A DNA stretch of 64,000 nt, from positions 19,643 to 83,642 of the forward strand of contig CAZKCI010000064.1 of assembly GCA_964551475.1 (NCBI GenBank), in the 5' to 3' direction. Below, piece by piece: positions 2,800 to 57,734 of this stretch. Under the pieces are notes generated by a model. It had not been told where the DNA came from. It saw only the letters and a program-made list of their open reading frames with translations, and searched no databases. Each line of letters begins with the position of its first letter. Positions within the stretch are counted from its first letter, which is position 1. The position numbers and the translations under genes are program-made. The stretch is from an uncultured bacterium (GTDB lineage: Bacteria; Auribacterota; Erginobacteria; Erginobacterales; CAZKCI01).

Positions 2800-3212
2800 A
2801 CGGAAGGTAAATAGGCTAGGGTTAGGTGAATGGTTTGGTCATTGGGCAAGGGTTAGGTGCGGCCGGGTTCCACCGTTTACCTCACCTATTGACCAGACCA
2901 ATAACCTTGCCCTAACCCATTGACCGATTGGTTGACGGGTTAGGGTAAGGAAGTGGGTCTGGTAAATGGGTTAGGGTCAAGTGCGGCCTGGAGAACCGCC
3001 GGCCGGGCTGCACCATTGACCTTACCCATCGACCAGACCAATAACCTTGCCCTAACCCATTGACCGATTGGTTGACGGGTTAGGGTAAGGAAGTGGGTCT
3101 GGTAAATGGGTTAGGGTCAAGTGCGGCCTGGAGAACCGCCAGCCAGGCTGCACCATCGACCTTACCCATCGACCAGACCAATATCCTAACCCTAACCCAT
3201 CAACCCCATCCG
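2800..3212 (+). repeat. Three tandem copies of a ~125-bp MITE-like element with terminal inverted repeats (GGGTTAGGGTAAGGAAGTGGGTCTGGTAAATGGGTTAGGG … CCTTACCCATCGACCAGACCAATAACCTTGCCCTAACCC), joined by GATTGGTTGAC linkers
   Basis: Two near-identical ~150-bp direct repeats (approx 2893-3050 and 3043-3190), each carrying internal inverted arms, plus a more diverged copy at 2805-2935. The same element recurs at 6 other intergenic loci in the window. Confidence 0.8.
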
Positions 3213-3223: not shown

Positions 3224-4213
3224 ATGAAGGAACAATCTCAAGATATTCTTCTGCAAGTCCGCGACCTCCGGAAGAGCTTCCCCCTTCGCCGGGGGCTCTT
3301 CTCCCGCCCGGCGGGGTCCGTCCGGGCGGTGGACGGGGTGAGCTTCGAGATCCCCCGCGGGACCACGCTCGGCCTGGTCGGCGAGACCGGCTGCGGGAAG
3401 ACCACGCTCGGCCGCCTCATCCTCCGTCTCCTCCCCGCCGACGGGGGAGAGGTTTTCTTCCGGGGCTTGAACGTGCTCGCCCTTCCCCCCGCCCGGCTGC
3501 GGGAGCTGCGCCAGGAGATGCAGATCGTTTTCCAGGATCCTTTCGGATCGCTGAACCCCCGGATGAGAGTCGGCGCGATCGTGGGGGAGGGGCTCCGAAT
3601 CTTTCGGCGGGGGACCGGACGGGAGATCGAGACGGAGACGGCCCGCCTCCTGGAGCGGGTGGGCCTCAACGCCTCCGCGGCGAAACTCTATCCCCACGAG
3701 TTTTCGGGCGGCCAGCGCCAGCGGATCGGGATCGCCCGGGCGATCGCGCTCCGGCCCGCGTTCATCGTCTGCGACGAGCCGGTCTCTTCGCTGGACGTCT
3801 CCATCCAGGCCCAGATCCTGAACCTTCTCGCCGACTTGCAGGAGGAGATGGGGCTCGCCTATCTCTTCATCGCCCATGATCTCCGCGTGGTCGAGCACAT
3901 CTCCCATCGGGTGGCGGTGATGTACCGGGGGCGGCTCATGGAGACGGCGAAACGGGAGGATCTTTACGCCGATCCCCGCCACCCCTACACCCGTCTCCTT
4001 CTGGATTCCATCCCCGATCTCGATCCCGCCGCCCCCCGCCGCGATCCGCCCGCCGTTGCGCCCGAAGAGGCGGCTGGCGACGGCTGCCCGTTCTTCCCGC
4101 GCTGCGGGGAGAGGAGCGAGGAATGCGGTACGGTAGTTCCGGAGCTTCAGGAGATTTTTCCCGGGCATCAGGTGGCGTGTATAAGGCAGGGAAGGCTGAA
4201 GACCGAAGGCTGA
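3224..4213 (+). CDS. ABC transporter ATP-binding protein, OppF/DppF family
   Basis: Walker A GETGCGKT, signature FSGGQRQR, Walker B FIVCDEPVSSLD and a C-terminal Cys-containing extension (CPFFPRC). Confidence 0.85.
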   Translation: MKEQSQDILLQVRDLRKSFPLRRGLFSRPAGSVRAVDGVSFEIPRGTTLGLVGETGCGKTTLGRLILRLLPADGGEVFFRGLNVLALPPARLRELRQEMQIVFQDPFGSLNPRMRVGAIVGEGLRIFRRGTGREIETETARLLERVGLNASAAKLYPHEFSGGQRQRIGIARAIALRPAFIVCDEPVSSLDVSIQAQILNLLADLQEEMGLAYLFIAHDLRVVEHISHRVAVMYRGRLMETAKREDLYADPRHPYTRLLLDSIPDLDPAAPRRDPPAVAPEEAAGDGCPFFPRCGERSEECGTVVPELQEIFPGHQVACIRQGRLKTEG

Positions 4214-4370
4214 AGGCTGAAGGCCGAAGACTGAAGGCTGAAGGCTGAAGGAAAAACCGCCTGAACCCTGAACCCTGAACCCTGAACCCTGAACCCTGAA
4301 CCCTGAACCCTGAACCCCGTAGCCAGCCACTTGACAATTGATAAATGACCAATGACGAATGACCAATGAT
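4189..4370. repeat. Three consecutive short tandem arrays: (GCTGAAGG)x~7 overlapping the oppF 3' end, (CCTGAAC)x8, and (AATGACC)x3
   Basis: Read directly: …gaaggctgaagaccgaaggctgaaggctgaaggccgaagactgaaggctgaaggctgaagg…cctgaaccctgaaccctgaaccctgaaccctgaaccctgaaccctgaacccc…aatgaccaatgacgaatgaccaatga. A TTGACA hexamer sits at ~4331. Confidence 0.85.
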
Positions 4371-4385: not shown

Positions 4386-6182
4386 ATGAAAAAATGGCTC
4401 TCGCTCGCGATTGTCATCCTCATCCTGGCCGGAATCGCCATCTGGCGCTTCGCCTTCCGGCCGACTTCCTCGCCGCCTCTCTCCGCGTTCGTTCCGGAAC
4501 GGGCCGCGATCTATCTGTCCGCGGACGATCTGGCCGGTTTCTGGGACCGTTTCGTCACCGGGGAATTCTGGCGGGAGCTGAGCGGATCGCCCCTTTGGAA
4601 GAAGGCGGGGATTCCGGAGAAGATCGCCTCCTGGGCCGCCGGTTTCGAAGCCGCGGCCGGTTTTCCTCTCGATCGGGACAACTTCCGCGAGCTCTGCGGG
4701 CGTCAAATCGCCCTCGCCCTCCTGCCGGAGGAGAAGGGCCGTCCCGCGTGCTTCCTTCTGGCCACCCGGGTCGGCGCGAAAACCCGGGCGCTGGAGCTCG
4801 TCTCCCGCTGGCGGGACAAGATCCGCGCCGAAGATCAGAGGTCTTTGCGGGAATCGGAGCGGTCGGATCTTCCCTGGGTGGAGATCCGCCCGAGCGAGGT
4901 CTTCCCGTTCTCCTCGGCCTACGCATTCTTCGGCGATTGCCTGGTCTTCCTGGTGTCGCCCGTGCGGGCCGGTCGGGAGATCGAAGAGGTCCTGTCCCTC
5001 GCCCAAGGGAAGGGGACCGGCGCCTCCATCGCCGCGCTCGACGGCTTCCGGGAGACGAGCGGCCTCCTTCCGCCGTCCTTTTCGCCGCGACTCTTCTGGC
5101 ATCTGCGCGCCGATCGCCTGTCGGCGCTGTGGGGAGGGGGAGGCCTGGTCGGGATCGAAGCCCCCGGGATGAGGGAATGGGAGACTCTTTCCAACAACCT
5201 CCGCTCCCGCCTGGAGACCACCCGCTCGCTCGGCGGGGCGGTGTGGCTGGAACGGGGGCTGAAGGGCTTTATCCGCAGGGAGTTCGATGTCGCCCGGGCG
5301 AAAGAGATCTATGGCGAGAAACTCTCTCGTCCGATCTCCCGGCGGCTGGACGGTCTCCGTTTCGCCCCCGCTTCCGCCCTGGGCGTCTGGGCCGCCGCCG
5401 AGGACTTCTCCCTCTGCTGGGAGCGGGCGCGGATCGATTGGGAGATGCTGGCCCCGCTCCTCACCACGGGCGCGGACCGGGACTCGCGGGAAGTTTGGAC
5501 GGCGCTGTTCCGGACGTTCCGGGAAGATCTTCTCCCCGCGCTCTCGGATGAAGCGGCGGTCGTCCTCAACCGCCTCGCCTCTCCCGGCCTGATCCCGCTC
5601 CCCGACGCCGCGCTGGCGGTCAAAGTGAAAGACGCCGCCGCCGCCGCGCGGGGGATGGAGAAGGTCGTCGCCGCGGCGATCGGGAGCCGGCCCATCCTTC
5701 CCTCGTCCGCGCGGCGGGGAAAGTGGGAGATCACGACGGTCCCGGTCGCGCCCTTTTTCCAGCCCGCCTGGGCGGCGGCCGAGGGTTATCTGGTCGCCGG
5801 GACCGCTTCGGCGGCGGTGGAGAAAGCCCTCCTGCTCCTGTCCGGCGGGGAAGGGCGGCTGATCGACGAAGCGGATTTCCGGCGCCTGGCCGAGGTCATC
5901 CCGGCCGAGGGCGGGCGTTATCTCTATCTCGACACCGCCCGTCTGAGCGACGATATCGCCGAGGTCATCCGCTGGGCGGCGGCTTTCGCGCCGAAGGAAG
6001 AGCGGCAGCGGGAGTTCCTATCGGCGCCGGAGGCGATCGAGTCGCTGCGCCCCTGGAAGCGCCTGGAGAAATTGGCGTTGCGGGCGCGGGCGCAACAAAA
6101 CGTTGTGATCGATGACTTTTACTGGTATAGTGCTGAAGAATCATTCTCCGGCGCGGCTTCCGGGACGCCGCCTGCGCGTTGA
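4386..6182 (+). CDS. Hypothetical membrane-anchored protein (~598 aa); N-terminal TM helix, large periplasmic/extracytoplasmic domain
   Basis: ATG 4386 preceded by AGGGGG RBS ([20 protein letters not shown]…). It sits in the long ORF 4359..6182 and has no recognisable catalytic motif. It possibly resembles DUF3352-type proteins; this is unverified. Confidence 0.55.
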
Positions 6183-7152: not shown

Positions 7153-7304
7153 AGTATATATGGGCGCGCCGGGTGCTGTCCGCGGACGGGTTTCGCTATC
7201 GTAGGCGCGGACCTTTACGGTCCGCGGTTACGACACCGGGGAGGGGACCCTGGGGACGTTTCGGCTTGAAATGATTCCGAAGGCCCATATATAATACGCG
7301 CCCG
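7153..7304 (+). other. Structured ~150-nt element upstream of hppA. Its ends are mutually complementary AT-rich segments (gTATATATGGGCGCGcc … ggCCCATATATAatacgcgccc) and it encloses strong internal hairpins (GCGCGGACC-ttta-CGGTCCGCG)
   Basis: Complementarity was read directly. It is either a cis-regulatory leader RNA or a small TA-flanked MITE. Confidence 0.35.
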
Positions 7305-9831: not shown

Positions 9832-10266
9832 ATGAGCCAGGGGGAGAACCGGCCGGGCGAAATCCATGACGAGCCGGCGGCCAGCCGTCTGGGCTACCGG
9901 GTTCTCAAGGCGGTCCTGATCATCCTGGTCGCGGGCGGCGTGGTCTTCCTGTGGAAGTTCGCCGCCCGGCGCACCCCCCCCGACCTGGCCCCCCACCGGG
10001 GACAGCTCCGGCTGCTGGAGGAGTCCTACGCCCTCCGCCAGGAGCGGATCCGCGCCGACTTTGAGGAGAAGATCCGCGCCGCGCCCAACGAGGTCCTTTC
10101 CGTCAAGTACCAGCAGGAGGAGAACCAGGAACTGAATCGGGCCGAGGACCTCTATTTCGCCGACAAGGAAGCGATCGCCCGGGGCGATTACCGCTGTCTC
10201 CCGGCCCACTGGGGGGAGGAGATCAAGCGGATGCCGAAATCAACAACTGGAACAACTGACCGTTAA
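9832..10266 (+). CDS. Hypothetical small membrane-anchored protein (144 aa)
   Basis: ORF with one TM helix ([18 protein letters not shown]) and a charged C-terminal region. It is co-directional and close to hppA. No recognisable motif. Confidence 0.45.
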
Positions 10267-10398
10267 TGGGTAAGGGTGAGGAAGTGGGTCTGGTCAATGG
10301 GTTGGGGTTAAGTGCAGCCCGGCGAATCGCAAGACAGGCCAGACCATTAACCTTACCCATCTTCCAGACCAATAACCTCACCCTTACCTATTGACCAT
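10267..10398 (+). repeat. MITE-like palindromic element, single copy, beginning 1 bp after the upstream stop codon
   Basis: tGGGTAAGGGTGAGGAAGTGGGTCTGGTCAATGGGTTGGGGTTAAGTGCAGCCC…AGACCATTAACCTTACCCATCTTCCAGACCAATAACCTCACCCTTACC. The arms are reverse-complementary. Confidence 0.8.
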
Positions 10399-10407
10399 CG
10401 GTTAACA

Positions 10408-10776
10408 ATGGAACCAAGTAACAAAAAGATCCTGGTTATCGACGACGACGACAAGATCGGCGCTTTTCTCAAGCTCTATTTCAGCAAGAAGGGGTTCGCG
10501 GTGGGGGTCGTCCAGAAGGCTGAGGAAGCGGAGCGGGAGATCGAGAAGACAAGGCCCGATCTGATCTTCCTCGACTACCGGATGTCCCCGATCACCGGGA
10601 AGGACATCCTGGAGCGGATGAAGATCCGCGGCGACCGCACGCCGGTGGTGATGATGTCGGCGTACCGCCGCCGCGACGGGGACATGGAGATGGTCAGGCT
10701 GGGGGCGCTCGCCTATCTCCCCAAGCCTTTCGACTTCGCCGAGATCGACCGCATCCTCCGCCGGGTCTTCCCCTGA
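10408..10776 (+). CDS. Single-domain response regulator (CheY-like receiver)
   Basis: ILVIDDDD…; phospho-acceptor context DLIFLDYRM; conserved T/S (VVMMSAY) and K (YLPKPF) positions. No output domain. Confidence 0.85.
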   Translation: MEPSNKKILVIDDDDKIGAFLKLYFSKKGFAVGVVQKAEEAEREIEKTRPDLIFLDYRMSPITGKDILERMKIRGDRTPVVMMSAYRRRDGDMEMVRLGALAYLPKPFDFAEIDRILRRVFP

Positions 10777-10780
10777 AACG

Positions 10781-11020
10781 ATTGGTCAATGGGTTAGGGT
10801 TAGGAAGTGGGTCTGGTGGATGGGTTAGGGCAAGGTGTCGCCAAGCCAGGTTGCACCATTAACTTTACCCATATACCAGACCAATATCCTTACCCTTACC
10901 CATTAACCGATTGGGTGACGGGTTAGGGTTAGGTCAACGGTTTGGTCCTTGGGCTGGGGTTAGGTCGGTTGCACCATTGACCTTGCCCATTTACCGGACC
11001 AATAACCTTGCCCTGATCCA
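10781..11020 (+). repeat. Two tandem MITE-like elements between the receiver and histidine kinase genes
   Basis: Copy 1 ~10785-10908 (GGGTTAGGGTTAGGAAGTGGGTCTGGTGGATGGGTTAGGG…TACCAGACCAATATCCTTACCCTTACCC). The linker is gattgggtgac. Copy 2 ~10920-11020. Confidence 0.8.
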
Positions 11021-12979
11021 TTGCCCGTTGTTATGGATACCGACTCCACTCCAAACGCTCTGGCCGACGAGCTGCTCTCCCGTCTCCCCGACGGGGTGAT
11101 GTGGCTGGACGGCGAGGGGCGTTTCCGCCATCTCAACCCCGCCGCTCGGGCGCTGCTTCTCGCCCCTTCCCGGCGCTGGCTGGGAAGGTTCTTGACGGTG
11201 TATCTTGCCCCCGCGTCGGCGCCGGCGGTGGCGACCGCTCTCGGCGAGATGGCCGCCGCGGGCCGCGGCGAAGGCCGATGGGAGGTGGCCGCCGCCCGGC
11301 GTCCGGAGCGGAAGCTCGAGCTGGCTCTCTCCGCCGTTCGGGACAAGGGTACTCTCTCCGGGTTCTCCGGGACCCTCCGGGACGTCACCCGGGAGAGAGA
11401 GGAGACGGCCCGCCTGCGGGAGGTCTCCGCGGTTCTCCAGAGCCTCCAGGAGACGGTGATCATCACCGACCGCCGCCGCCGGATCATCTATGTCAATCCC
11501 GCCGCCGCCGGGATGCTGGGCTATGCCGCGGAAGAGATGCTGGGGCGCGCTGCCGCCTTTTACTTCGAGGGGATCCCGGGCAACCCTCCCCATCTGGCCG
11601 ATTTCATCTCCAGCCATGTCGGCGAGAGAGGATGGGAGGGAGATGTGTACAACCGCCGCAAGGATGGCCGGATCGTCCCGGTTCATTTATCCCTGACCAA
11701 GGTGGTGGCGGAGGGGGGGGAGACGGTGGGCTATGTCGGGGTCTCCCATGACATCAGCCGGATCAAGGAGCTGGAGGCCGAGCGCCGGCTGCGCATGGAG
11801 AGGGTGGAGGAGGAGGTGCGCAAACGGACCGAGGAGCTGCAGGGGATCAGCCGGGACATGGCCGGCCAGCGGAGCCAGCTCGACGCCATCCTCTCCAACA
11901 TTGCCGAGGGGGTGGTGGTGGAGAACGAGCGCTACGAAGTGGAGTTCATGAACCAGACGCTGATCCGGGGTTTCGGGAACCAGGTGGGGCGGAAATGCTT
12001 TGAGGCCTTCATCGGCCGAGCCACACCCTGCCCGGTCTGCGGGGTGAAAGCGGTGATCGGGGAAGGGAAGGACTACTTCCGCTATGAATCGGTGGACAAG
12101 CAGGGCCGCCGCTACGAGCTGGTCGCCTCGCCCCTGGTGAAGCCCGACGGCCGCCGCCTGGTCATCGAGATCATCCGGGACATCACCGAGCGCAAGAAGA
12201 CCGAGGAGCTGATCCGCCGCCAGAACCTCCAGCTGACCGAGGTCAACCAGGAGCTGAAGAAGCTGCTCCGGGTCAAAAGCGATTTTCTTTCCCTGATCTC
12301 TCACGAGCTCAAGTCTCCCCTGACCGTGATCCAGGGCTATCTCATCCTGCTCACGAAAAAGCAGATGGGGGCCTTGAACCCGGAGCAGGAGGAGGGGCTG
12401 TCCGTGGCCGCCCTGGAGGCCGACCACCTGAACTATCTGATCAACCAGATCCTCGACCTCTCCCAGCTCGACTCCGGAAAGCTGGAGCTCATACCGGAGA
12501 CGATCGACGTCGCGGAGCTGATCGGGCATTGCCTGGCCGCGCTCCGCCCCGCGGCGAAGAAGAATCGCGTCTCCTTCCGAACGCGCATCGGCCCCGCCGC
12601 CCGCCGGGCGCTGGCCGACGGGAACAAGATCAAGCAGGTTTTCCGGAACGTCCTGGAGAACGCCCTCAAGTTCAGCCCCCCCGGAGGGACCATCTCCATC
12701 CGGGGGGAGAGCAAGGAGGGGCGGGTCACCTATTCCGTCAGCGACCAGGGCATCGGCATCCCCGAGCACGAACTGGAAAAGGTCTTCGAGCGCTTCCACC
12801 AGGTGAAGAACCCCCTGACCATGAAATTCGGGGGCATGGGACTGGGCCTGGCCATCAGCAAGAACATCATGGAGCTCCACGGGGGAAGGATCTGGGCGGA
12901 GTCCTCTCCGGGGAAGGGGACCACGATATTTTTCAGCTTGCCCCGGGAAAAGGCGGGCGGGAAGGGGGAGGAACGATGA
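11021..12979 (+). CDS. PAS/PAC-domain sensor histidine kinase
   Basis: TTG start per the ORF track (an alternative ATG lies 12 bp downstream). PAS modules (…IITDRRRRIIYVNPAAAGMLGY…), a coiled-coil, and the HisKA H-box LISHELKSPLTVIQGY. HATPase_c N/G boxes are present (…NVLENALKFS…, GGMGLGLAISKNIMELHGGRIWAESSPGKGTTIFF). Confidence 0.85.
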   Translation: MPVVMDTDSTPNALADELLSRLPDGVMWLDGEGRFRHLNPAARALLLAPSRRWLGRFLTVYLAPASAPAVATALGEMAAAGRGEGRWEVAAARRPERKLELALSAVRDKGTLSGFSGTLRDVTREREETARLREVSAVLQSLQETVIITDRRRRIIYVNPAAAGMLGYAAEEMLGRAAAFYFEGIPGNPPHLADFISSHVGERGWEGDVYNRRKDGRIVPVHLSLTKVVAEGGETVGYVGVSHDISRIKELEAERRLRMERVEEEVRKRTEELQGISRDMAGQRSQLDAILSNIAEGVVVENERYEVEFMNQTLIRGFGNQVGRKCFEAFIGRATPCPVCGVKAVIGEGKDYFRYESVDKQGRRYELVASPLVKPDGRRLVIEIIRDITERKKTEELIRRQNLQLTEVNQELKKLLRVKSDFLSLISHELKSPLTVIQGYLILLTKKQMGALNPEQEEGLSVAALEADHLNYLINQILDLSQLDSGKLELIPETIDVAELIGHCLAALRPAAKKNRVSFRTRIGPAARRALADGNKIKQVFRNVLENALKFSPPGGTISIRGESKEGRVTYSVSDQGIGIPEHELEKVFERFHQVKNPLTMKFGGMGLGLAISKNIMELHGGRIWAESSPGKGTTIFFSLPREKAGGKGEER

Positions 12980-13803
12980 AAGCTTTCGCCTGGTTGTGCC
13001 CGCCGCGCCGGCTGATCCGTTGGCCCGGTTATTCCGCCCTGCTGGCGCTGGGCCTGGCCGGCTGCTCCTCTCTTCCCGAGGCCGAGCCGGCGATCGGATC
13101 CCGGGAAGAAGCGCGGGAGGCGATCGCCAGCGCCGACCCGGACCGCCGGGCGGACGGGGTGGAATATCTGGGCGACGCGGCGGACCCGGCGCTGATCCCG
13201 ACGATCTCGCCCCTGGTCCGGGATCCGGACAAGATGGTCCGTCTGAACGCCACTCTGGCCCTGCGCAACATCGCCGATCCCGCGGCCGCCGTGCCCCTGC
13301 GGGAAGCCCTCGTGGATGCCGACTCGGATGTCCGCTTCTCGGCCGCCAGCGCTCTATTCGAGATCGGGGACAGAACGGGCGAGGACGCCCTGATCGAGGG
13401 GCTCTCGAGCCCGCGACCCGACTTTCGTCTCCAGGCGCTGATGTTCCTGGGCAAGATGCGCTCGCGCAAGGCCGTCCCCGCTCTGGTCGGCCTGCTCAAG
13501 GACGAGGAGCCCCGGATCCGCTCCACCGCCGCCTACATCCTCGGCCTGCTTGAGGAGCCATCGGCCCGGGGCCCCCTGATCGCGGCCTTGAGCGATGAGT
13601 CCGTCTGGGTGCGCCGTGACGCCTGGGGGGCGCTTCAGGCCGTCTCCGGGGAGGCGCTGATTTTTCATCCCGACGCCGAACCGGCCGTCCGGGAGCAAGA
13701 GACGGCGGCCATCAGGGAATGGGCGGCCTCCCGGACGGCGGGGACGCCGGTGCTTCCGGCACCATCGCCGCTTTCCAGCCCCGGGGTGATAGGACAAGAT
13801 TAG
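12976..13803 (+). CDS. HEAT-repeat (PBS-lyase-like) lipoprotein
   Basis: ATG 12976 overlaps the kinase stop (ATGA). Lipoprotein signal …LLALGLAGCSS. Repeated …DPD/VR…A..AL… HEAT-like units (DKMVRLNATLALRNI, DSDVRFSAASALFEI, EPRIRSTAAYILGLL, SVWVRRDAWGAL). Confidence 0.7.
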   Translation: MKAFAWLCPPRRLIRWPGYSALLALGLAGCSSLPEAEPAIGSREEAREAIASADPDRRADGVEYLGDAADPALIPTISPLVRDPDKMVRLNATLALRNIADPAAAVPLREALVDADSDVRFSAASALFEIGDRTGEDALIEGLSSPRPDFRLQALMFLGKMRSRKAVPALVGLLKDEEPRIRSTAAYILGLLEEPSARGPLIAALSDESVWVRRDAWGALQAVSGEALIFHPDAEPAVREQETAAIREWAASRTAGTPVLPAPSPLSSPGVIGQD

Positions 13804-13805
13804 AA

Positions 13806-14040
13806 AGAAAATGGGTTAGGGTTAGGAAGTGGGTCTGGTAAATGGGTTAGGGTTAAGTGCGGCCTGACAAAACCGCCAGCCGGGCTACACCATTGACCGA
13901 TTGGTTAATGGGTTGTTGATGGGTTGGGGTTAGGAAGTGGGTCTGGTAAATGGGTTAGGGCAAGGTGTCGCCAAGCCAGGCTGCACCATTAACTTTACCC
14001 ATTTACCAGACCAATATCCTTACCCTTACCCATTGACTAG
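13806..14040 (+). repeat. MITE-like elements (one truncated copy plus one full copy) directly after the HEAT-lipoprotein stop
   Basis: aTGGGTTAGGGTTAGGAAGTGGGTCTGGTAAATGGGTTAGGGTTAAGTGCGGCC…; second copy …GGGTTGGGGTTAGGAAGTGGGTCTGGTAAATGGGTTAGGGCAAGG…TTTACCCATTTACCAGACCAATATCCTTACCCTTACCC. Confidence 0.8.
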
Positions 14041-21050: not shown

Positions 21051-21051
21051 A

Positions 21052-21215
21052 AAACATTGGAGTACTGGAGTATTGGAGTAGTGGAGTGATGATAATCATG
21101 GAGTATTGGAGTAGTGGAGTGATGGAGTAATGGGGCAGACTGCCGTGCGGCTTTTTTCCAATACTCCAATACTCCATCACTCCATTACTCCATTGCTCCA
21201 TCACTCCAGTACTCA
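21052..21215 (+). repeat. Large inverted repeat built from 8-mer tandem units (GGAGTANT)x~9 … (ANTACTCC)x~7, with an embedded intrinsic-terminator-like centre (GGCAGACTGCC gtgcggc TTTTTT)
   Basis: Left arm ~21058-21132, centre 21133-21157, right arm 21158-21214. The arms are reverse complements at unit level. Confidence 0.85.
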
Positions 21216-21249
21216 TTCTCCCTTCTGTCGATCGGCTTCTCTCTCCGGC

Positions 21250-22851: not shown

Positions 22852-24720
22852 TTGTCCAGCTACCGTCTCCGGCTCACGAATAAGATGATGAATGTTCGCG
22901 ATCATCTCTCGAGCCGCGCCTTTCGGGGGACGGCGCTCCTGCTTCTCGCCCTCCTCGCCGCGCTCGCCTATTCCTATCCCATCTTCCGCGACTTCGGCAA
23001 CTGGGGGATCCAGGACTGGGACCAGCACCTCTTCTACCACGCCGTCCCCCGCCACACGATTCTCCACTACCATGAGTTCCCGCTCTGGAACCCCTGGTAC
23101 TGCGGGGGGGCGCCTCTTCTCGCCAACCCGCAGTCCCGTTTCCTCTCCCCGACCTACCTCTGCGTCCTCCTCCTGGGCGCGGTGCGGGGGATCAAGGTCG
23201 AGATCCTCCTCCACCTGGTCGTCGGCCTGGTCGGGGCTTACCGCCTCGCCCGCTCCTTCCGGATGAGCCGCCCCGCCTCCGCCCTCACCGCTTCCCTCTT
23301 CGTTCTCAACAGCTCCTTCGCCCTCAACCTGACCGTGGGGATGACCTGGTTCCTCTCCGCCGCCTACATCCCCTGGGCTTTCCATTTTTATCTCAAAGCG
23401 ATGCGGGACCTGCGCTGGTCGGCCGCGAGCGGTGCCTGTCTGGCTATGGTTTTCCTGGGCGGGGGAATCTATCCCGTCGTGATCGCCGTTCTTTTTCTCT
23501 TCGTCTATGCACTCTTCGCCGTTCTCCTGGAGAAAAGGCGCTTCTCCCGCGCCGCGGCGGCCATTTTTCTCTCCATCGCTTTCGCCTTGTCGATCAGCGC
23601 CATCAAAGCCATCCCCGCCTGGATGTATCTGAAAGGACACCCCCGCCTGATCGACGACTACTCCGGCTACAGCCTCTCCTCGCTCGTCTTCTCCCTCTTC
23701 AGCCGCGATCAGCAACTGGGGGCGATCGAGAGCGCCCTCTCCACGTCCCGGACGGGATTTTTCGGCGGCGTCTCCTGGTTTATGGACGAGAACGGAATGT
23801 ACGTCGGGATCGTCGCCGCCCTCCTCTGCCTTCTCGGGATGATCTCCCGCTTCCGCCGCCGCCCGGCTCTCGCCCTCTGCCTGGTCCTCTCCCTCTGGCT
23901 CGCCTTCGGCTCCCGGGCGCCGTTGAGCCTTTGGAATCTCATCCATGAACTTCCGGTTTTCGCCTCGATGCGTGTGGCCCAGCGCTACCGGATCGTTTTT
24001 CTCCTCGCCTTCTCGCTCTTCGCCGGTTTCGGTCTCGACTCCCTGCTCGACCGTCTCCGCCGCCTCCGCCCGCGATTCCCCTCCGATCCCCTCGCCGCCG
24101 CCGCGGTCCTGGTGATCTCGGCCGACCTGATCCTGGTCTCCTCGCGGGTTTTCCGGGAAGCCTTCCCGATCCCTCCGCTCCCGGTTGGCCCTCCGGGCGC
24201 TTTTCGCCAGGTGGAATCATTCTCGTCTTACGGAAGAATCGGCTGGGTGGCGTACGCTTCGAATCCCCGGCACATATCCTGGGGCGGACTCTACCCGGCT
24301 TTTTTGAGCAACCTGGGAGTGATCAAGGCCTACGAGTCGGCCGAGGTGCCCAGGATGGCGATCCCGTCGGAGTGGCCGAGCTACCGGGGGGAGATATTCC
24401 TGGAGGGCACGGAAGGGAGCGCCACGCTCCAGCGTTGGACGCCCAACGCGCTGACGATCGAAACCGAGGCCGATCGTCCGGGCTATCTCATCGTCAACCA
24501 GAACTACGATCCCGGCTGGAAAATCGCCGGCGGCGGGACGGTGGAGAAGAGGAGGGGACTGATTGCGGTAAAAATACCTTTCCGCCGGGCCTCCGTGGCA
24601 TTATATTATCAGCCCCCCGGTTTTCGCCTCGGACTGGCCGTCTCGGCCGCCGGCTGCCTGCTGGCGGCCGCTGTTCTGCGCCGGACGATGCGTCTCCGGG
24701 GGAGGCAGGAAGAAAAATGA
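22852..24720 (+). CDS. Large polytopic membrane protein (~620 aa), candidate GT-C-fold glycosyltransferase (YfhO/ArnT-like)
   Basis: More than 10 predicted TM helices. A conserved-looking periplasmic loop (HEFPLWNPWYCGGAPLLANPQS). Family assignment is tentative. Confidence 0.45.
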   Translation: MSSYRLRLTNKMMNVRDHLSSRAFRGTALLLLALLAALAYSYPIFRDFGNWGIQDWDQHLFYHAVPRHTILHYHEFPLWNPWYCGGAPLLANPQSRFLSPTYLCVLLLGAVRGIKVEILLHLVVGLVGAYRLARSFRMSRPASALTASLFVLNSSFALNLTVGMTWFLSAAYIPWAFHFYLKAMRDLRWSAASGACLAMVFLGGGIYPVVIAVLFLFVYALFAVLLEKRRFSRAAAAIFLSIAFALSISAIKAIPAWMYLKGHPRLIDDYSGYSLSSLVFSLFSRDQQLGAIESALSTSRTGFFGGVSWFMDENGMYVGIVAALLCLLGMISRFRRRPALALCLVLSLWLAFGSRAPLSLWNLIHELPVFASMRVAQRYRIVFLLAFSLFAGFGLDSLLDRLRRLRPRFPSDPLAAAAVLVISADLILVSSRVFREAFPIPPLPVGPPGAFRQVESFSSYGRIGWVAYASNPRHISWGGLYPAFLSNLGVIKAYESAEVPRMAIPSEWPSYRGEIFLEGTEGSATLQRWTPNALTIETEADRPGYLIVNQNYDPGWKIAGGGTVEKRRGLIAVKIPFRRASVALYYQPPGFRLGLAVSAAGCLLAAAVLRRTMRLRGRQEEK

Positions 24721-25851
24721 ACGTGGAGATCACCGAAAGACACAAGACCCTCGCCTCCCGCTTCGCGGAGATGCGGGGGCATCTTTGACCTGGACGGCAA
24801 GCGGACCCGCCTGAAGGAACTGGAAACGGAGATGTCCCGCCCCGGTTTCTGGGACGAGGGGGAAAAGACCCAGAAGGCAATCGCCGAGCTCAAGGGGATC
24901 AAGGAGGTGCTCGATCCCTGGTCCGAACTGGAGAAAGATCTCGGGGAGCTTCCCGAACTTCTCGCTCTGGCCGCCGAAGACGCCAGCCTGGAGGGGGAGA
25001 TCGTCTCCGAGGTCGACCGGATCGGGGAGCGCCTGGACGCGCTCGAGCTTTCCGCGATGCTCTCCCGCCCGGAGGACGCCCAGGACGCGGTCTTCAGCCT
25101 CCAGGCCGGAGCGGGGGGGACCGAGTCCTGCGACTGGACCGAGATGCTCTGGCGGATGTACAGCCGCTGGTGCGAGAGGCGCGGCTACGACGTCGAGGTG
25201 GTGAACATCGCGCCGGGGGAAGAGGCGGGGATCCGGAATCTCACCGCCCTGATCAAGGGGCGTTTCGCCTACGGTTATCTCCAGGCCGAGCGGGGAGTCC
25301 ACCGGCTGGTGCGGATCTCCCCCTTCGATTCCAACCATCGCCGCCACACCTCCTTCGCGTCGGTCGACGTGGCCCCCGACGTGGAGGAGGAGATCGTGAT
25401 CGAGATCGAGGAGAAGGATCTGCGGATCGACACCTTCCGCGCCGGGGGCCATGGGGGCCAGCACGTCAACATGACCGACTCGGCCGTCCGGATCACCCAC
25501 CTGCCGACCGGGATCGTGGTCCAGTGCCAGAACGAGCGCAGCCAGCACAAGAATCGGGCGACGGCGATGAAGGTCCTCAAAGCCCGCCTCTACCAGCGGG
25601 AGCAGGACGAGCTCCGGAGGAAGGCGGTCAAGCATCACGAGGCGCAGAAGGAGATCGGCTTCGGTTCCCAGATCCGCTCCTACGTCTTTCATCCCTACAC
25701 CATGGCCAAGGATCACCGGACCGGCGTCACTACCGGCGACGTGAACCGGGTCATGGACGGGGACATCGACCGCTACATCAACGCGTTTTTAAAGCAGCAG
25801 ACGGGGAGGGGTTCTCCCGGGCCGGCTGCCGACGACGACATGGAGGTGTAA
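24717..25851 (+). CDS. prfB: Peptide chain release factor 2, expressed via programmed +1 ribosomal frameshift (join 24717..24785, 24787..25851)
   Basis: Frame-0 ORF MNVEITERHKTLASRFAEMRGHL ends at the in-frame UGA in gggggCAT CTT TGA C. The +1 frame continues DLDGKRTRLKELETEMSRPGFWDE… and carries the SPF (…RISPFDSNHRRHTSF…) and GGQ (…RAGGHGGQHVNMT…) motifs. Confidence 0.9.
24775..24789 (+). promoter_or_regulatory. RF2 autoregulatory +1 frameshift site: internal SD-like GGGGG, 3 nt, then CUU UGA C
   Basis: Matches the canonical prfB frameshift cassette (SD-like element, slippery CUU, weak UGA-C stop context). Confidence 0.85.
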
Positions 25852-25857: not shown

Positions 25858-25915
25858 TAAACCAAGAACCGCAAAAAGTGAACCGTGAACCGTGGAACCG
25901 TGAACCGTTGAACCA
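25858..25915 (+). repeat. Tandem 9-mers (GTGAACCGT-like)x~5 immediately after the prfB stop
   Basis: …aaccaagaaccgcaaaaagtgaaccgtgaaccgtggaaccgtgaaccgttgaaccaggttgg… This is the TGAACC repeat family. Confidence 0.75.
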
Positions 25916-25941: not shown

Positions 25942-26214
25942 ATGACTATCTATGTCGGCAATCTGCCCCGCGATATCAGCGAGGAGGAAGTCCGCCAGGC
26001 TTTCGCCGCATTCGGCGAAGTGACCGTGGTCCGCATGATCAAGGACAAAGTTACCGGCGAGGCGCGCGGCTTCGGCTTTGTGGAGATGCCCAACGCCGAG
26101 GAAGGCGCTTCCGCCGTCCGGGCGATGAACGGCAAGGAGCTCAAGGGCCGCACGCTGAACGTCAACGAGGCCCACGCCAAGCCCGAGGGCGGAAGAGGCC
26201 CGAGAAGAGAGTAG
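25942..26214 (+). CDS. RNA-binding protein with a single RRM domain
   Basis: RNP-2 IYVGNL and RNP-1 RGFGFVEM, with a Gly/Arg-rich tail. The ATG at 25942 lies inside track ORF 25918..26214. Confidence 0.85.
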   Translation: MTIYVGNLPRDISEEEVRQAFAAFGEVTVVRMIKDKVTGEARGFGFVEMPNAEEGASAVRAMNGKELKGRTLNVNEAHAKPEGGRGPRRE

Positions 26215-26220
26215 GCAGGT

Positions 26221-26288
26221 AAGGGTTAGGAAGTGGGTTTGGTCTATGGGTTACCAGACCCACTTCCTAACCCTGACCCATCGACCAG
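26221..26288 (+). repeat. Minimal MITE-like hairpin (20-bp arms GGTTAGGAAGTGGGTTTGGT / ACCAGACCCACTTCCTAACC) filling the RRM-lysS intergenic gap
   Basis: Near-perfect inverted repeat with a 9-nt loop. It has the same arm sequence as the larger elements and ends 6 bp before the lysS ATG. Confidence 0.8.
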
Positions 26289-26293
26289 TAGTT

Positions 26294-29040: not shown

Positions 29041-29045
29041 AAGAG

Positions 29046-29275
29046 TCAATGGGTTAGGGTTAGGAAGTGGGTCTGGTAAATAGGTTGGGGTTAGGTGTGT
29101 CATGGCAAAACGACTGACGGGCTACACCATTGACCGATTGGTTGACGGGTTAGGGTTAGGAAGTGGGTCTGGTAAATGGGTTGGGGTTAGGTGTGTCATG
29201 GCAAAACGACTGACGGGCTACACCATCTACCTTACCCATCGACCAAACCCACTTCCTTACCCTCACCCATTAACC
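29046..29275 (+). repeat. MITE-like elements (two copies, first lacking a right arm) between lolC/E and lolD
   Basis: …caatGGGTTAGGGTTAGGAAGTGGGTCTGGTAAATAGGTTGGGGTTAGGTGTG…; the second copy ends …ATCTACCTTACCCATCGACCAAACCCACTTCCTTACCCTCACCC. The internal spurious ORFs (MAKRLTGYTI…) are repeat-encoded. Confidence 0.8.
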
Positions 29276-29999: not shown

Positions 30000-30066
30000 C
30001 GTTGGCGATGGAACCGATAACGTGGTATAATACACGATCGGAATGGCCCGAAAGCGAGGTAAAGCA

Positions 30067-30972
30067 ATGCATATCTACATCAACGGCAAGTATTTCGACA
30101 AGGACGAGGCGAAGGTCTCGGTCTATGACCACGGGCTTCTCTACGGGGACGGCGTCTTCGAGGGAATCCGGGTCTACAACAACCGCGTCTTCCGCCTGGG
30201 GGAGCACATCCAGCGCCTCTACGATTCGGCCAAAGGGATCTGCCTGACCATCCCGCTCAGCCCGGAGGAGATGTCCCAGGCGGTCATCGAAACCGTTCGT
30301 CGCAACGGCCTGCCCGATGCCTACATCCGCCTGGTCGTCACCCGCGGCGCCGGCTGCCTGGGGCTCAACCCCTTCACCTGCTCCCATCCCCAGGTCATCA
30401 TCATCGTCGACAAGATCGCCCTCTATCCCCAGGAGCTGTACGACAAGGGGTTGAATGTCGTCACCGTGGCCACGCACCGCAACTACCCGGAGTCGCTCAA
30501 CCCCCGGATCAAGTCGCTCAACTACCTGAACAACATCCTGGCCAAGATCGAGGCGATCAACGCCGGCGTGGAAGAGGCGATCATGCTCAACTCCTACGGC
30601 CTGGTCTCGGAGTGCACCGGCGACAACATCTTCGCCTACCGCAAGGGCGTTCTCCTCACCCCCTCGATCAGCATGGGCGTGCTGGAGGGGATCACCCGCG
30701 ACGCCGTCATCCAGATCGCCCGGGAAAAGAAGATCGTCGTCAAGCCCATGGTCATGACCCGCTACGATTTCTACATCGCCGACGAGGTCTTCGTGACCGG
30801 GAGCGCGGCCGAGATCGTCCCGGTGGTCAAGGTCGACGGGCGGGTGATCGGGGAGGGCGTCCCCGGCCCGGTCACCCGGTCCCTGATGGAGGCCTACCAT
30901 CACCTGACCCGGAGCGAAGGGGAGCCGGTGACCCGTGGGGGGAAACCGGGTAAAAAGAAACTGATTGGTTGA
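30067..30972 (+). CDS. ilvE: Branched-chain amino acid aminotransferase (PLP fold type IV)
   Basis: ATG 30067 after a GAGGT RBS (MHIYINGKYFDKDEAKVSVYDHGLLYGDGVFEGIRVY…). Conserved E…K motifs are present. The final codons and TGA stop lie within the downstream repeat. Confidence 0.85.
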   Translation: MHIYINGKYFDKDEAKVSVYDHGLLYGDGVFEGIRVYNNRVFRLGEHIQRLYDSAKGICLTIPLSPEEMSQAVIETVRRNGLPDAYIRLVVTRGAGCLGLNPFTCSHPQVIIIVDKIALYPQELYDKGLNVVTVATHRNYPESLNPRIKSLNYLNNILAKIEAINAGVEEAIMLNSYGLVSECTGDNIFAYRKGVLLTPSISMGVLEGITRDAVIQIAREKKIVVKPMVMTRYDFYIADEVFVTGSAAEIVPVVKVDGRVIGEGVPGPVTRSLMEAYHHLTRSEGEPVTRGGKPGKKKLIG

Positions 30973-31245
30973 CGGGTTAGGGTTAGGAAGTGGGTCTGGT
31001 AAATGGGTTAGGGTTAAGTGCGGCATGGCGAAACCGCCAGCCGTGCCACACCATCTACCTTACCCATCGACCAAACCCACTTCCTTACCCTCACCCATTG
31101 ACCGATTGGTTGACGGGTTAGGGTTAGGAAGTGGGTCTGGTAAATGGGTTAGGGTTAAGTTCGGCATGGCAAAACGGCTGACGGGCTACACCATTAACCT
31201 TACCCATTTACCAGACCATTATCCTGACCTTTACCTATAGACCAT
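30962..31245 (+). repeat. Two tandem MITE-like elements between ilvE and mcsA; the element/linker supplies the ilvE stop codon
   Basis: ctgattggtTGAcGGGTTAGGGTTAGGAAGTGGGTCTGGTAAATGGGTTAGGGTTAAGTGCGGC…ATCTACCTTACCCATCGACCAAACCCACTTCCTTACCCTCACCC cattgaccgattggttgac GGGTTAGGG… (second copy). Confidence 0.85.
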
Positions 31246-37398: not shown

Positions 37399-37547
37399 GG
37401 TTCAACGGATCAAGGGTTCAGCGGTTCAGAGGTTCACGGTTCAACGGTTAGATAACACAACCGCTGAACCGCTGAACCGTGAACCGTTGAACCGTGAACC
37501 GCTGAACCGCTGAACCGTGAACCGCTGAACCGTTGAACCCTGAACCC
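37399..37547 (+). repeat. ~150-nt inverted repeat made of 8-9-mer microsatellite units: (GGTTCANNG)x6 - loop agataacacaa - (CNNTGAACC)x~11, followed by a T-rich tract
   Basis: It begins 1 bp after the TPR-gene stop and ends ~20 nt before the proS ATG. The arms were read directly. Confidence 0.85.
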
Positions 37548-37567
37548 TGTTTCCTTTTGGAGCACCC

Positions 37568-39335: not shown

Positions 39336-39360
39336 CCCTGAACCCTGAACCCTGAACCCC
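39336..39360 (+). repeat. (CCCTGAA)x3 heptamer array
   Basis: gccctgaaccctgaaccctgaacccc; the same unit as the 4261-4318 array. Confidence 0.7.
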
Positions 39361-39368
39361 GGACTTCA

Positions 39369-40838: not shown

Positions 40839-40913
40839 GTTGTTATTCCATGGCCTCGCGTCCTGAAAACAAATGGTCCCAGCGGGTGGCCGAGACCAGC
40901 AACGCCCTCGATC

Positions 40914-41393
40914 TTGAAGCGGGTGTCTTCACCAAGTTCGCCAAGAGAGAGGAGAAAAAGGTTCCCTCCGGTCACCGGGTGCTCTTTCGTCGTCAGCATC
41001 ATCGTCGCGCTGATGATATTCTCTCCGCTTGCCTGTAAGATGTTCCCTCCGCCGAGCGTCCATTTCAAATCGCCTTTCCCGCCTTCAGCTGAGTTGTTGC
41101 ACTATCAGCGGGAGCAGGCGGGTTTTGACGTGAGCTATGCCTTTGTTTTCAGGATGACCGACGATAGACTGCGCGATCAGATAATCGCGGATTGGCAACT
41201 GCAGACGGTGGTCGATAAAGACCGGAAATTGCGCTCGTTCATCAGCCTGAAACCGCCCGCCTGGTGGCCGGCCAGGAGACTCCAGGCCATGCCCGAGCGC
41301 TACGAGAGAGACGATGAGGCTGCCGAGAAATATTGGAGCTTGTGGGTCGACGGCAAGAACGAGTTGCTGTACTGTGAGTGCGGACGGTGGTGA
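40914..41393 (+). CDS. Hypothetical protein (159 aa) with N-terminal hydrophobic segment; lower local GC
   Basis: ORF only; no recognisable motif (…WQLQTVVDKDRKLRSFISLKPPAWW…LYCECGRW). Confidence 0.35.
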   Translation: MKRVSSPSSPRERRKRFPPVTGCSFVVSIIVALMIFSPLACKMFPPPSVHFKSPFPPSAELLHYQREQAGFDVSYAFVFRMTDDRLRDQIIADWQLQTVVDKDRKLRSFISLKPPAWWPARRLQAMPERYERDDEAAEKYWSLWVDGKNELLYCECGRW

Positions 41394-42686: not shown

Positions 42687-42756
42687 TTTTCGGTTCTCTC
42701 CCGTTTTATGTGGGTTCCCAGATCCCCATTTTCTATTCTCGTCTCCGCCCCAACCT

Positions 42757-42796
42757 TTTGGACATTTAAGGTCCGATCGGACCAGAAATGTCCAAT
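42757..42796. repeat. 38-bp near-perfect palindrome TTGGACATTT-aa-GGTCCGATCGGACC-ag-AAATGTCCAA
   Basis: Read directly. It is a member of the CGATCG-cored palindrome family also present at 57428-57653. Confidence 0.8.
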
Positions 42797-43010
42797 TTCA
42801 CTTCCGGGGCGCCGAGAAGAAGACGGCCGCGGAGGCGGCAGGGCCCGGGGCAGGGACGGCGGGGATAACCGGCCGGGATGAAGGGCGCCCTCCGAATCCA
42901 CACGAAATGGAGGAGAACCTGATTTTCCAGGCCTGTCCATAGCGTCCATCCAGTCCCTCCCGTCCATGGCGTCCCGACCCTCGCGGTTCAGTCGGCCGGT
43001 GATTCCGGCC

Positions 43011-43041
43011 AAAAAATCGCCCCGGGGAGGGGCGATTTTTA
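43011..43041. terminator. Bidirectional intrinsic terminator AAAAAA-TCGCCCC-gggga-GGGGCGA-TTTTT
   Basis: Perfect 7-bp GC stem flanked by an A-run and a T-run. It sits between the accessory islet and the nusA leader. Confidence 0.65.
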
Positions 43042-43095
43042 TTCTTGACCGCGGTGCAAACGTGTAATATCCTAACAACAATTTCGGGTGGTTCT

Positions 43096-43126
43096 CCAGA
43101 GTGGGTGGACACCCACTCTTTTTTAT
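43096..43126 (+). terminator. nusA leader hairpin + U-tract (AGAGTGGGTG-gac-ACCCACTCT-TTTTTTAT), ~25 nt before the nusA ATG: candidate attenuator
   Basis: Read directly. It is preceded by TTGACC (43045-50) and TGTAATAT (43063-70) promoter-like hexamers with an atypical 14-nt spacing. Confidence 0.5.
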
Positions 43127-43149
43127 AAACCGCCCCGGACGAATACGAC

Positions 43150-48860: not shown

Positions 48861-48861
48861 T

Positions 48862-48997
48862 CGGGTTCAGCGGTTCACGGTTCAGCGGTTCAGCGGTTCA
48901 ACGGTTGGAAAAATAACCGTGAACCGCTGAACCGTGAACCGCTGAACCTCTGAACCTCTGAACCGTTGAACCGTGAACCGTTGAACCTTTGAACCCT
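48862..48997 (+). repeat. ~135-nt inverted repeat of 8-9-mer units: (GGTTCANCG)x5 - loop aaaaataa - (CNNTGAACC)x~9
   Basis: It starts 2 bp after the truB stop and ends ~18 nt before the ribF ATG. It has the same architecture as 37399-37547. Confidence 0.85.
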
Positions 48998-49014
48998 GGC
49001 TGCATAGACATGCA

Positions 49015-55447: not shown

Positions 55448-55677
55448 ACGAATTGACACGAATTTTCACGAATTAGGCTTGGCCCGGCTCGGCATTTTAA
55501 CCCGCGAATAACGCGCCTGCCCGCCGCAGCGCATAGCGCGGAGGCGGGAATAGCGCGCGAAGGGGTTCGATTTGAACGGTTTCAACGTCTTCAACGATTT
55601 CAACGGCCGTTCAGTCGGTCACGTGTAACGTGTAACGATTTCAACGACTGCAACGATTTTAACGTCTTCAACGCTTC
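55448..55677 (+). repeat. Composite repeat region upstream of rimO: (CACGAATT)x3, CGCGAATA/GCGCATAG/GGGAATAGCGCGCG motifs, then a ~10-unit 9-mer array (NNTTCAACG)
   Basis: …gatttccacgaattgacacgaattttcacgaatt… and …ggtttcaacgtcttcaacgatttcaacggccgttcagtcggtcacgtgtaacgtgtaacgatttcaacgactgcaacgattttaacgtcttcaacgcttc. Confidence 0.8.
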
Positions 55678-55679
55678 TC

Positions 55680-57029: not shown

Positions 57030-57056
57030 GCCCGGTCTGCGACCGGGCGTTTTTGT
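57030..57056 (+). terminator. Rho-independent terminator GCCCGGTC-tgc-GACCGGGC-GTTTTTGTTG after rimO
   Basis: 8-bp GC stem plus a U-tract, immediately after the rimO TAG. Confidence 0.7.
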
Positions 57057-57064
57057 TGAATTTT

Positions 57065-57272: not shown

Positions 57273-57427
57273 CGATCCCTGCGCATCGCGGGCAATTCCC
57301 CGCCCGGTCTATCGCGGGGGTAAGAAAGCCGGAAGGTTTACAGGCGTTGTACGCAACCGCCAGATTGCCAAGCGGTTAGCGGATAAATCCCCCCCCACTG
57401 TCAACCCGTTCCTCTAAAACATCGGCT

Positions 57428-57653: not shown

Positions 57654-57734
57654 CCCAAGAGAGGCAAGAGATGGTGATCTGGCGCAGGAAGAAGGAGAAC
57701 CCACCCAAAACGGAAGAGAACCCCATTTTTTAGC

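Follow-up and report, generated by a model that had tools for sequence, protein, structure and literature searches.

A previously undescribed family of palindromic repeats fills spacers between co-directional genes in Candidatus Auribacterota

The window analysed here is a 64-kb stretch of DNA (64,000 nucleotides; contig CAZKCI010000064.1, positions 19,643 to 83,642) from an uncultured bacterium of Candidatus Auribacterota. At seven loci, the whole spacer between two genes on the same strand is filled by copies of one palindromic repeat of about 136 nt. The flanking genes encode oppD-oppF-like ATP-binding cassette (ABC) ATPases, with ABC ATPase domains in both products (repeat locus 2806-3205), a 144-aa protein and a response regulator (10262-10396), a response regulator and a PAS histidine kinase (10784-11026), a HEAT-repeat protein and a TPR protein (13809-14038), an RRM protein and LysS (26214-26286), a lolC/E-like permease and a lolD-like ATPase (29045-29275), and a class-IV aminotransferase and McsA (30967-31243). 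At all seven loci the co-directional neighbours are related in function, and the flanking pairs are of the kind that normally share an operon, e.g., oppD-oppF, lolC-lolD, and response regulator-kinase. These repeats constitute a previously undescribed, non-coding, and abundant intergenic family of Candidatus Auribacterota.

A repeat search and an nhmmer census, the latter using a profile (A1) built from 14 aligned units, detected 13 units at the seven loci. These are the seven loci and approximately 13 copies that an earlier sequence-only reading of this DNA had described, and the left-arm consensus quoted there is correct. The 16-nt core AGGAAGTGGGTCTGGT occurs exactly 12 times on the + strand of the window; allowing up to three mismatches, there are 17 matches compared to 0.42 expected from shuffles. 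The full unit measures 136-137 nt and recurs in arrays with a period of 140-141 nt; the previously given size of about 125 bp matches short variants of 114-125 nt, but not the full unit. No further copies were found in the rest of the window, in the 8.5 kb past its 3' end (L031; sequences compared with the window carry such L numbers), or in the 6.6 kb before its 5' end (L033). The units match no protein family and two of their three reading frames reach a stop codon within the first 15 nt.

Each unit comprises two complementary arms separated by a short, variable, GC-rich centre of 20-35 nt. The 5' arm (GGTYRAYGGGTTAGGGTTAGGAAGTGGGTCTGGTAAATGGGTTAGGGTTAAG) is G/T-rich, contains nearly no C, and consists of GGGTTA-like hexamers in degenerate form; complementary to it, the 3' arm is C/A-rich, contains nearly no G, and ends in CCCATYRACC. 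Both arms show a periodicity of 6-7 nt. The termini have the form GGTYRAY… and …RTYRACC, the unit ends GGTYRAYGGGTTAGGG and CCCTAACCCATYRACC are complementary, and pairing runs along the whole unit. At 49-55%, the G+C content of the units is lower than that of the genome (65%), yet they are not A+T-rich. Units occur singly or in head-to-tail arrays with GATT between them. The tandem linker CATTGACCGATTGGTTGAC proposed earlier proved to consist mostly of the outer ends of the palindromes (…CCCATTGACC plus GGTTGACGGG…), and only its GATT truly lies between units.

Two types of arm pair can be distinguished, namely GGAAGTGGGTCTGG with CCAAACCCACTTCC (type 1) and GGT(G/T)AATGGT(C/T)TGG with CCAGACCAATA(A/T)CC (type 2). 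Units with matched arms and units that mix the two types are about equally common. A 16-nt core of the 5' arm is nevertheless invariant, even where its pairing partner differs. This core (AGGAAGUG, at 2948-2963 and equivalent positions) is one base off a full Shine-Dalgarno sequence, AGGAGGUG, and its type-1 partner CACUUCCUUA (29242-29257 and 31070-31085) is one base off CACCUCCUUA, the usual 3' end of 16S rRNA; the host's own 16S gene lies outside the window. The likeness of AGGAAGUG to a Shine-Dalgarno sequence, and of its partner CACUUCCU to an anti-Shine-Dalgarno sequence, may be due to chance in a purine-rich arm.

All units lie on the + strand. The oppD-oppF spacer holds an array of three. 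The first (2806-2925; 101.7 bits on the + strand vs 64.6 on the − strand) starts 18 nt past the oppD stop codon (2785-2787) and has type-2 arms on both sides (GGTGAATGGTTTGG / CCAGACCAATAACC); the second (2930-3065), a full 136-nt unit scoring 141.8 bits and following the 140-nt period, combines a type-1 5' arm with a type-2 3' arm and has a minimum free energy (MFE) of −93.4 kcal/mol in the sense strand; and the third (3070-3205) ends 18 nt before the oppF ATG (3224). The single unit between the 144-aa protein gene and the response-regulator gene (10262-10396; 129.4 bits) contains the upstream TAA stop codon (10264-10266) inside its left end, terminates 11 nt before the ATG at 10408, and is the most conserved copy of the family. 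A 42-aa open reading frame (ORF) called by JGI (10266-10398) lies wholly inside it. Two units separate the response-regulator and histidine-kinase genes: the first (10784-10908) is 90% identical to the unit at 13915-14038, and the second (10913-11026; 88.2 bits) is short, has type-2 arms, and ends 6 nt before the kinase ATG.

The remaining loci include derivatives of the unit. Between the HEAT-repeat and TPR genes, a unit without a 3' arm (13809-13898), matched only at profile positions 5-93, precedes a full unit (13915-14038; 125.3 bits) that ends 17 nt before the TPR-gene ATG at 14056. The truncated unit has the junction CACCATTGACC|GATTGG, consistent with deletion between two CCATTGACC direct repeats flanking the 3' arm. 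The spacer between the lolC/E-like and lolD-like genes repeats this pattern: a unit with the same CCATTGACC junction (29045-29135), whose G-rich 5' arm is mostly unpaired in the predicted fold, starts 4 nt past the upstream stop codon and is followed by a full unit with type-1 arms on both sides (29140-29275; 135.6 bits) that ends 10 nt before the lolD-like ATG. In both truncated units, the 3' arm has been lost exactly between the flanking direct repeats. The RRM-lysS spacer contains a minimal form (26214-26286; MFE −44.8 kcal/mol) with type-1 arms on both sides, of which a basal stem of approximately 30 bp is left. The publicly called lysS product of 501 aa starts from an ATG inside this minimal form (26246-26293); the true start is likely at 26294 (485 aa). 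Finally, two full units precede mcsA: the first (30967-31103; 134.5 bits) is 89% identical to the unit at 29140 and contains the aminotransferase-gene TGA (30970-30972) inside its left end GGTTGACGGG, and the second (31108-31243; 136.7 bits) ends 6 nt before the mcsA ATG (31250).

The proximity to stop codons noted in the sequence-only reading (0-18 bp) is borne out: in order of locus, the gaps from stop codon to repeat are 18 nt, overlap, 3-7, 5, 0-2, and 4 nt, and overlap, with two stop codons inside the left end of a unit. At their other end, the repeats stop 6-18 nt short of the next start codon and hence take up the entire spacer.

RNA folding predicted very stable hairpins, in line with the palindrome described earlier. 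MFE values of single units ranged from −60 to −93 kcal/mol (e.g., −76 kcal/mol, z about −8) and whole spacers bearing the repeats folded far better than their shuffles, e.g., −250.6 compared to −147.4 kcal/mol. RNAalifold recovered one long stem of 23-28 pairs that was kept across 29 copies, and one clean compensatory change, from G-C to U-A, was observed between the orthologous copies in L017 and L024.

Very stable hairpins directly after stop codons are what a transcription terminator or attenuator between genes would present, and such a role had been suggested for these repeats. We nevertheless regard it as very improbable. No unit is followed by a T-run, the only hairpin-plus-T candidates at the repeats being a trivial linker match (13890-13911) and a weak one on the minus strand, although canonical hairpin-plus-T terminators are present upstream of nusA (43098-43125 and 42960-43010) and indicate that the organism uses ordinary terminators. 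Furthermore, the repeats split operon-type gene pairs, leaving no room or signal for a new promoter. No sigma-70-like promoter was found in any unit; promoter-like sites elsewhere in the window lie at 7266-7295 and 30002-30031.

A Shine-Dalgarno-like motif precedes none of the seven genes downstream of the repeats compared to 15 of the 28 other genes in the window, and the short leaders before the downstream starts are A/T-rich. Together with the tight junctions at both ends, and with the minimal form having kept exactly the basal stem, this would fit translational coupling, whereby a ribosome at the upstream stop codon melts the base of the stem and thus either exposes a start codon lacking a Shine-Dalgarno sequence or is itself handed over to it. 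Such coupling appears improbable. In arrays of two to four units, the hairpin next to the stop codon is not the one next to the start codon, and melting it would not expose the start codon. In addition, the missing motif may simply reflect the C/A-rich arm occupying that space, and many genes without the repeat also lack the motif.

The host belongs to a narrow clade of Candidatus Auribacterota, a candidate phylum of the PVC group, and the repeat family is restricted to that clade. In the protein collection, the LysS sequence encoded in the window has identities of 89%, 83%, and then at most 66%; the cluster at 83% includes MCX6348810.1, named Candidatus Aureabacteria / Auribacterota bacterium. 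The same genome is found in JGI metagenomes 3300036982 (as a 242-kb contig) and 3300037485. Exact-pattern scanning of 185,579 GTDB species genomes found the repeat in one metagenome-assembled genome, CAZOYW01, at four loci. Three other GTDB matches to the pattern were rejected as chance matches inside coding sequence. The same kind of scan showed that a few metagenome assemblies also carry the repeat, i.e., JAEAMG, JAEAME, JAEAMF, and Ga0105104, and the repeat core had no match in viral contigs. Relatives bearing the repeat are 84-89% identical to the window across syntenic stretches. No copies of this GGGTTA family were present in the distant relative L028, which has the same gene order, a G+C content of 55%, and a LysS that is 62% identical.

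Comparison of these relatives shows that the positions of the repeats are conserved. At each of the five spacers that could be compared, both species have the repeat at the orthologous site and with identical boundaries, though unit number and arm type often differ. With 3 of 137 positions differing, the unit at 10262-10396 is 97.8% identical to its orthologue in L016; in the flanking genes, identity is 79-83% at third and 92-97% at second codon positions. The unit at 10784-10908 is only 77% identical to its L016 orthologue because the type of its 5' arm has changed. At other sites, the 3' arms of L013 and L023 are approximately 95% identical within flanks of 72-86%, and the L017 and L024 copies share 86% identity across the aligned unit (about 90% by eye), a value close to the 85-89% of their flanks.

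The copies nonetheless turn over at the DNA level: units are gained and lost, the 3' arm is lost between CCATTGACC repeats, the hairpin tip is lost, and sequence is exchanged between nearby copies. The oppD-oppF array contains four units in a second sample of the same organism (L033:9443-9982) compared to three in the window, the two sequences being 99.9% identical and differing in length by exactly 140 nt; this difference reflects either a real population polymorphism or the collapse of a repeat during assembly. Where the window has the minimal form at 26214-26286, the sister species has a full unit of 143 nt. Copies within the window genome are 75-92% alike, compared to 63-71% for orthologous copies at three sites, and neighbouring loci share long identical stretches (the unit at 10784 with that at 13915, and the unit at 29140 with that at 30967), which indicates homogenisation or replacement of copies. 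Recombination between copies is evident.

One locus carries a gene within the repeat. At L013:3868-4530, the arms enclose an ORF of 144 aa (L013:4084-4518) whose product is not a transposase but a member of the 23S rRNA intervening-sequence proteins (PF05635; E = 1.3e-16). The distal 3' arm complements the proximal 5' arm perfectly over 29 nt, and an arm supplies the last codons and the stop codon of the ORF. This arrangement is kept in a second species (L023:1-390). We considered whether this gene marks an autonomous parent element and rejected the idea: it has one close homologue (94%) and none of the others exceeds 67% identity, which makes it one-off cargo that has not been amplified.

Such turnover is what would be expected of a purely selfish or neutral DNA repeat, spread and turned over by transposition, gene conversion, and unequal recombination. 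It would be tolerated in spacers because its hairpin returns the stop and start codons to each other's vicinity and has neither promoter nor terminator, and it would have no function of its own. Several observations agree with this account: copy number is polymorphic between near-identical genomes, deletion derivatives exist, arm types have been swapped at orthologous sites, copies are more alike within than between genomes, chimeric units with mismatched arms are as common as matched ones, folding gives no strand-specific signal, and the taxonomic range is narrow. We consider the account possible but doubtful. The unit at 10262-10396, including its locus-specific centre, is conserved beyond the neighbouring synonymous and even second codon positions, and sites stay occupied across species. 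Where a GGGTTA repeat is missing, another hairpin repeat takes its place, both at truB-ribF (window 48861-49014 compared to L009) and at lolC-lolD (L028). Neither a target-site duplication nor, in the window and its flanks, a transposase was found.

These last points also bear on the suggestion that the repeats resemble MITEs (miniature inverted-repeat transposable elements). Their small size (114-137 nt), lack of coding capacity, and terminal inverted repeats are as in MITEs, but the status of a strict MITE is not supported. The longest k-mer shared by the two flanks averaged 4.0 nt over 23 loci compared to 3.84 nt for mismatched pairs of flanks, with no abutting repeat; a target duplication of 2 nt is not strictly excluded by this comparison, as no empty-site allele was at hand. 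Transposase genes were absent from the 64-kb window and approximately 15 kb of flanking sequence. The units also lack the 5'-TA-3' termini and the A+T-richness of MITEs (PMC2229807).

No match to a described repeat family emerged either. Searching the whole window against Rfam at gathering thresholds gave no match, and an E-value search of 10200-11100 returned only sub-threshold models of microRNA precursors, i.e., generic long hairpins. With up to three mismatches allowed, there were no matches to the ERIC2 22-mer or to the Correia terminal 19-mer.

The family is nevertheless of the same general kind as the REP/BIME, ERIC, and Correia repeats. REP sequences and BIMEs stabilise upstream mRNA, bind gyrase and IHF, and persist for long periods at orthologous sites. 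Like the Auribacterota repeat, the REP, BIME, and REPIN sequences of E. coli and Pseudomonas follow stop codons, lie between cistrons, and form arrays of variable length. They differ in that the REP unit of 20-40 nt is itself palindromic and alternates in orientation within arrays, whereas here it takes the whole unit of 136 nt to make the palindrome, and arrays run head to tail. Membership in the REP family fails because the arms cannot fold alone: the 5' arm is virtually without C and the 3' arm virtually without G, so neither folds on itself. No RAYT gene (Y1, IS200/IS605-like) was found in the window. The STRR heptamers of heterocystous cyanobacteria form intergenic arrays of 6-8-nt repeats. 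The arms of the Auribacterota repeat, as well as other arrays in the window (GGTTCAnC, TGGAGTA, and CCTGAAC), are of the same character; STRR arrays, however, are plain tandem repeats rather than inverted pairs forming a dispersed palindromic unit of 136 nt.

Among the larger palindromes, the ERIC element, or IRU, of enterobacteria is similar in size class, in being an imperfect palindrome over its whole length, and in being non-coding and intergenic, and is co-transcribed as a long stem-loop. It is a 127-bp imperfect palindrome with TA ends and target duplications, and its orientation is reported to matter for its effect on mRNA stability (PMC2229807). Its sequence is unrelated, its TA ends and duplications are not seen in the Auribacterota repeat, it is not known to occur in head-to-tail arrays, and hexamer repeats do not make up its arms. 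The Correia or NEMIS elements of Neisseria are likewise inverted-repeat elements of 100-155 bp. Their hairpins are often co-transcribed and are substrates of RNase III that alter the stability of neighbouring transcripts (PMC2229807; PMC2649163). They too are unrelated in sequence, and they have terminal repeats of only 24-26 bp, a TA duplication, an IHF site, and promoter-like ends, whereas the Auribacterota unit is paired over its full length. The YPAL or RU-2 elements of Yersinia are palindromic, make target duplications of 3-26 bp, and, as in the Auribacterota repeat, are not A+T-rich and lack TA termini (PMC2229807). In contrast, YPAL duplicates its target and its inverted repeats are internal, while no duplication was detected here.

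Taken with the very stable hairpins, the operon-type gene pairs, the residual spacers of 0-18 nt, the absence of promoter and terminator signals, and the occupancy of the same sites across species, these parallels lead us to favour, though not by a wide measure of confidence, a role at the level of mRNA. The units would almost certainly be transcribed within the operon mRNA, where each may fold as an imperfect RNA hairpin of approximately 50 bp. This co-transcribed hairpin could act as an intercistronic barrier or processing site, by blocking 3'-5' exonucleases, by serving as a site for a double-strand-specific RNase, or by both. Either effect would uncouple neighbouring cistrons in their stability while transcription continues. 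The proposal is drawn by analogy from what is generally known of REP sequences and from the ERIC and Correia elements (PMC2229807; PMC2649163).

Several observations weigh against such a role. About half of the copies have mixed arms with two or three internal mismatches each, so perfect pairing is not maintained. Covariation is uninformative because most stem pairs never vary, and the high conservation of the arms could stem from homogenisation to a family consensus instead of selection on each copy. The mean difference in energy between sense and antisense folds was only −2.7 kcal/mol, with the sense strand better in 20 of 33 copies and the antisense strand in 13. Wobble pairs were similarly distributed: there were 146 G·U pairs in the sense strand compared to 120 in the antisense strand, and one-sided changes produced 28 G·U and 15 A·C cells in the sense-oriented alignment. 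Divergent genes flank one copy (L008:7185-7318). Lastly, pairs such as two ATPases, or a permease and its ATPase, have no obvious need for different expression levels. The excess of G·U over A·C is suggestive, though a transcription-linked bias from C to T on the non-template strand could also produce it. With no clear difference between sense and antisense strands in folding energy or wobble pairs, strand-specific selection on the RNA is not supported.

The orientation of the copies is similarly equivocal. By best profile strand, seven loci in the window are co-oriented with their flanking genes and none is anti-oriented, so the statement that all copies share one orientation holds within the window. 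It is, however, uninformative there, because the + strand carries every gene near a repeat and essentially all genes of the 64 kb (judged by G+C content at third codon positions). In the relatives, after collapsing duplicates, there is only a bias, with approximately 12 co-oriented loci compared to four anti-oriented ones. Since the repeat is nearly symmetric, these assignments rest on arm type and centre. At mixed-arm loci, the type-1 arm is 5' in the sense strand at nine independent loci and 3' at three (L010, L018, and L022), a split that is not significant alone; inspection of ORFs showed that L018 is flanked by two genes on the − strand, recX and an htrA-like gene. On contig JAEAMG010000029, neither gene strand nor contig strand predicts the orientation of the four copies, and the GC skew of the window is too flat to call a replication-strand rule. 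Orientation is thus a bias of about 3:1 at most and not a rule, and the window cannot separate the direction of transcription from that of replication.

That both strands fold almost equally well, as expected of a DNA palindrome, raises the alternative of a site acting at the DNA level, as proposed for the BIMEs of E. coli. A nucleoid protein, gyrase, or a recombinase might bind to the periodic GG/CC tracts or to a cruciform; alternatively, replication or transcription might be affected by a G-quadruplex and an i-motif formed by the telomere-like G-rich arm, with its five GGG tracts, and the C-rich arm. The 16-nt core, invariant despite its differing partner, suggests recognition of a specific sequence, and the 6-7-nt periodicity of the arms and the unpaired orphan G-rich arms also agree with such a site. 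We judge it quite improbable, however, given that a quadruplex should lose out to a hairpin of −60 to −90 kcal/mol when the complementary arm is adjacent, and that the restriction of the repeats to intercistronic positions would be left unexplained.

Other spacers in the window also contain repeats. A second kind of hairpin occurs at 37399-37567 (between a TPR gene and proS) and 48861-49014 (truB-ribF), with 7-8-mers of GGTTCAnC in the 5' arm and GAACCGnT in the 3' arm; their MFE values are −88.7 and −80.9 kcal/mol, compared to about −45 kcal/mol for shuffles, and a partial array is found at 25873-25915. In the sister genome L009, the truB-ribF spacer has a GGGTTA-family repeat instead (4738-4856). 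A third hairpin, between secA and lnt (21051-21249), has (TGGAGTA)n and (TACTCCA)n arms and an MFE of −94 kcal/mol compared to −53 kcal/mol for shuffles; akin to its arms, GGAGTAAT-type heptamers are present in the prfB-lysS spacer of L028. Purely tandem arrays without hairpin potential were observed at 4200-4370, where (GGCTGAA)n across the end of oppF is followed by (CCTGAAC)n and (AATGACC)n, at 39337-39366, where (CCTGAAC)n recurs before btpA, and at 55568-55685, where an array of CGATTTCAA-like 9-mers precedes rimO. L028 has spacer repeats of its own (11435-11739, 12976-13149, 249-448, and 818-1149), including (GAGGGAC)n over approximately 230 nt after lysS, and a dispersed family of palindromes with C/A-rich 5' arms (…GCCACAAAGACACGAAGGCACTAAG … CTTAGTGCC…) that is also found at lolC-lolD (CACGAAG-type). 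Long non-coding stretches in the window lie at 40839-41313, 42687-43149, and 57030-58110. Separately, prfB (24718-24835) carries the classical programmed +1 frameshift site CAT CTT TGA C at approximately 24782-24791, after a short frame from 24718; the 339-aa ORF from 24832 thus covers no more than the second part of release factor 2.

These repeats raise a broader proposal, which we hold tentatively and think unlikely, that operon spacers in this branch of Auribacterota are systematically punctuated by selected long hairpins with arms of 6-8-nt repeats, the GGGTTA family being the most successful lineage. Punctuation of this kind would act through RNA processing, through uncoupling or coupling of cistrons, or as a module recognised by a protein. 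It is favoured by the finding that the same site holds unrelated repeats in different genomes (truB-ribF and lolC-lolD), by the one copy conserved beyond the level of second codon positions, and by the presence of a gene of 23S intervening-sequence type in the loop of one repeat, as in rRNA stems excised by RNase III; the putative Shine-Dalgarno and anti-Shine-Dalgarno likeness of AGGAAGUG and CACUUCCU would point the same way. Either the lineage has a mutational process that makes spacer structures, or spacers with structure are at an advantage in it.

What is known of interspersed palindromic repeats comes mainly from a few cultured Proteobacteria and Firmicutes. The present family adds a well-defined example from an uncultured phylum of the PVC group, with the unusual traits of telomere-like hexamer arms, head-to-tail arrays, and stop and start codons pressed against the foot of the hairpin. 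Such repeats have practical consequences: they mislead gene callers, as seen for the lysS start and the 42-aa ORF, they likely break or collapse metagenome assemblies, as the arrays of three and four units suggest, and they are usable as a strain-level marker. Should function underlie the conservation of some copies, this family would make it tractable to test how operon expression is shaped by intercistronic hairpins in a lineage where Shine-Dalgarno sequences are few.

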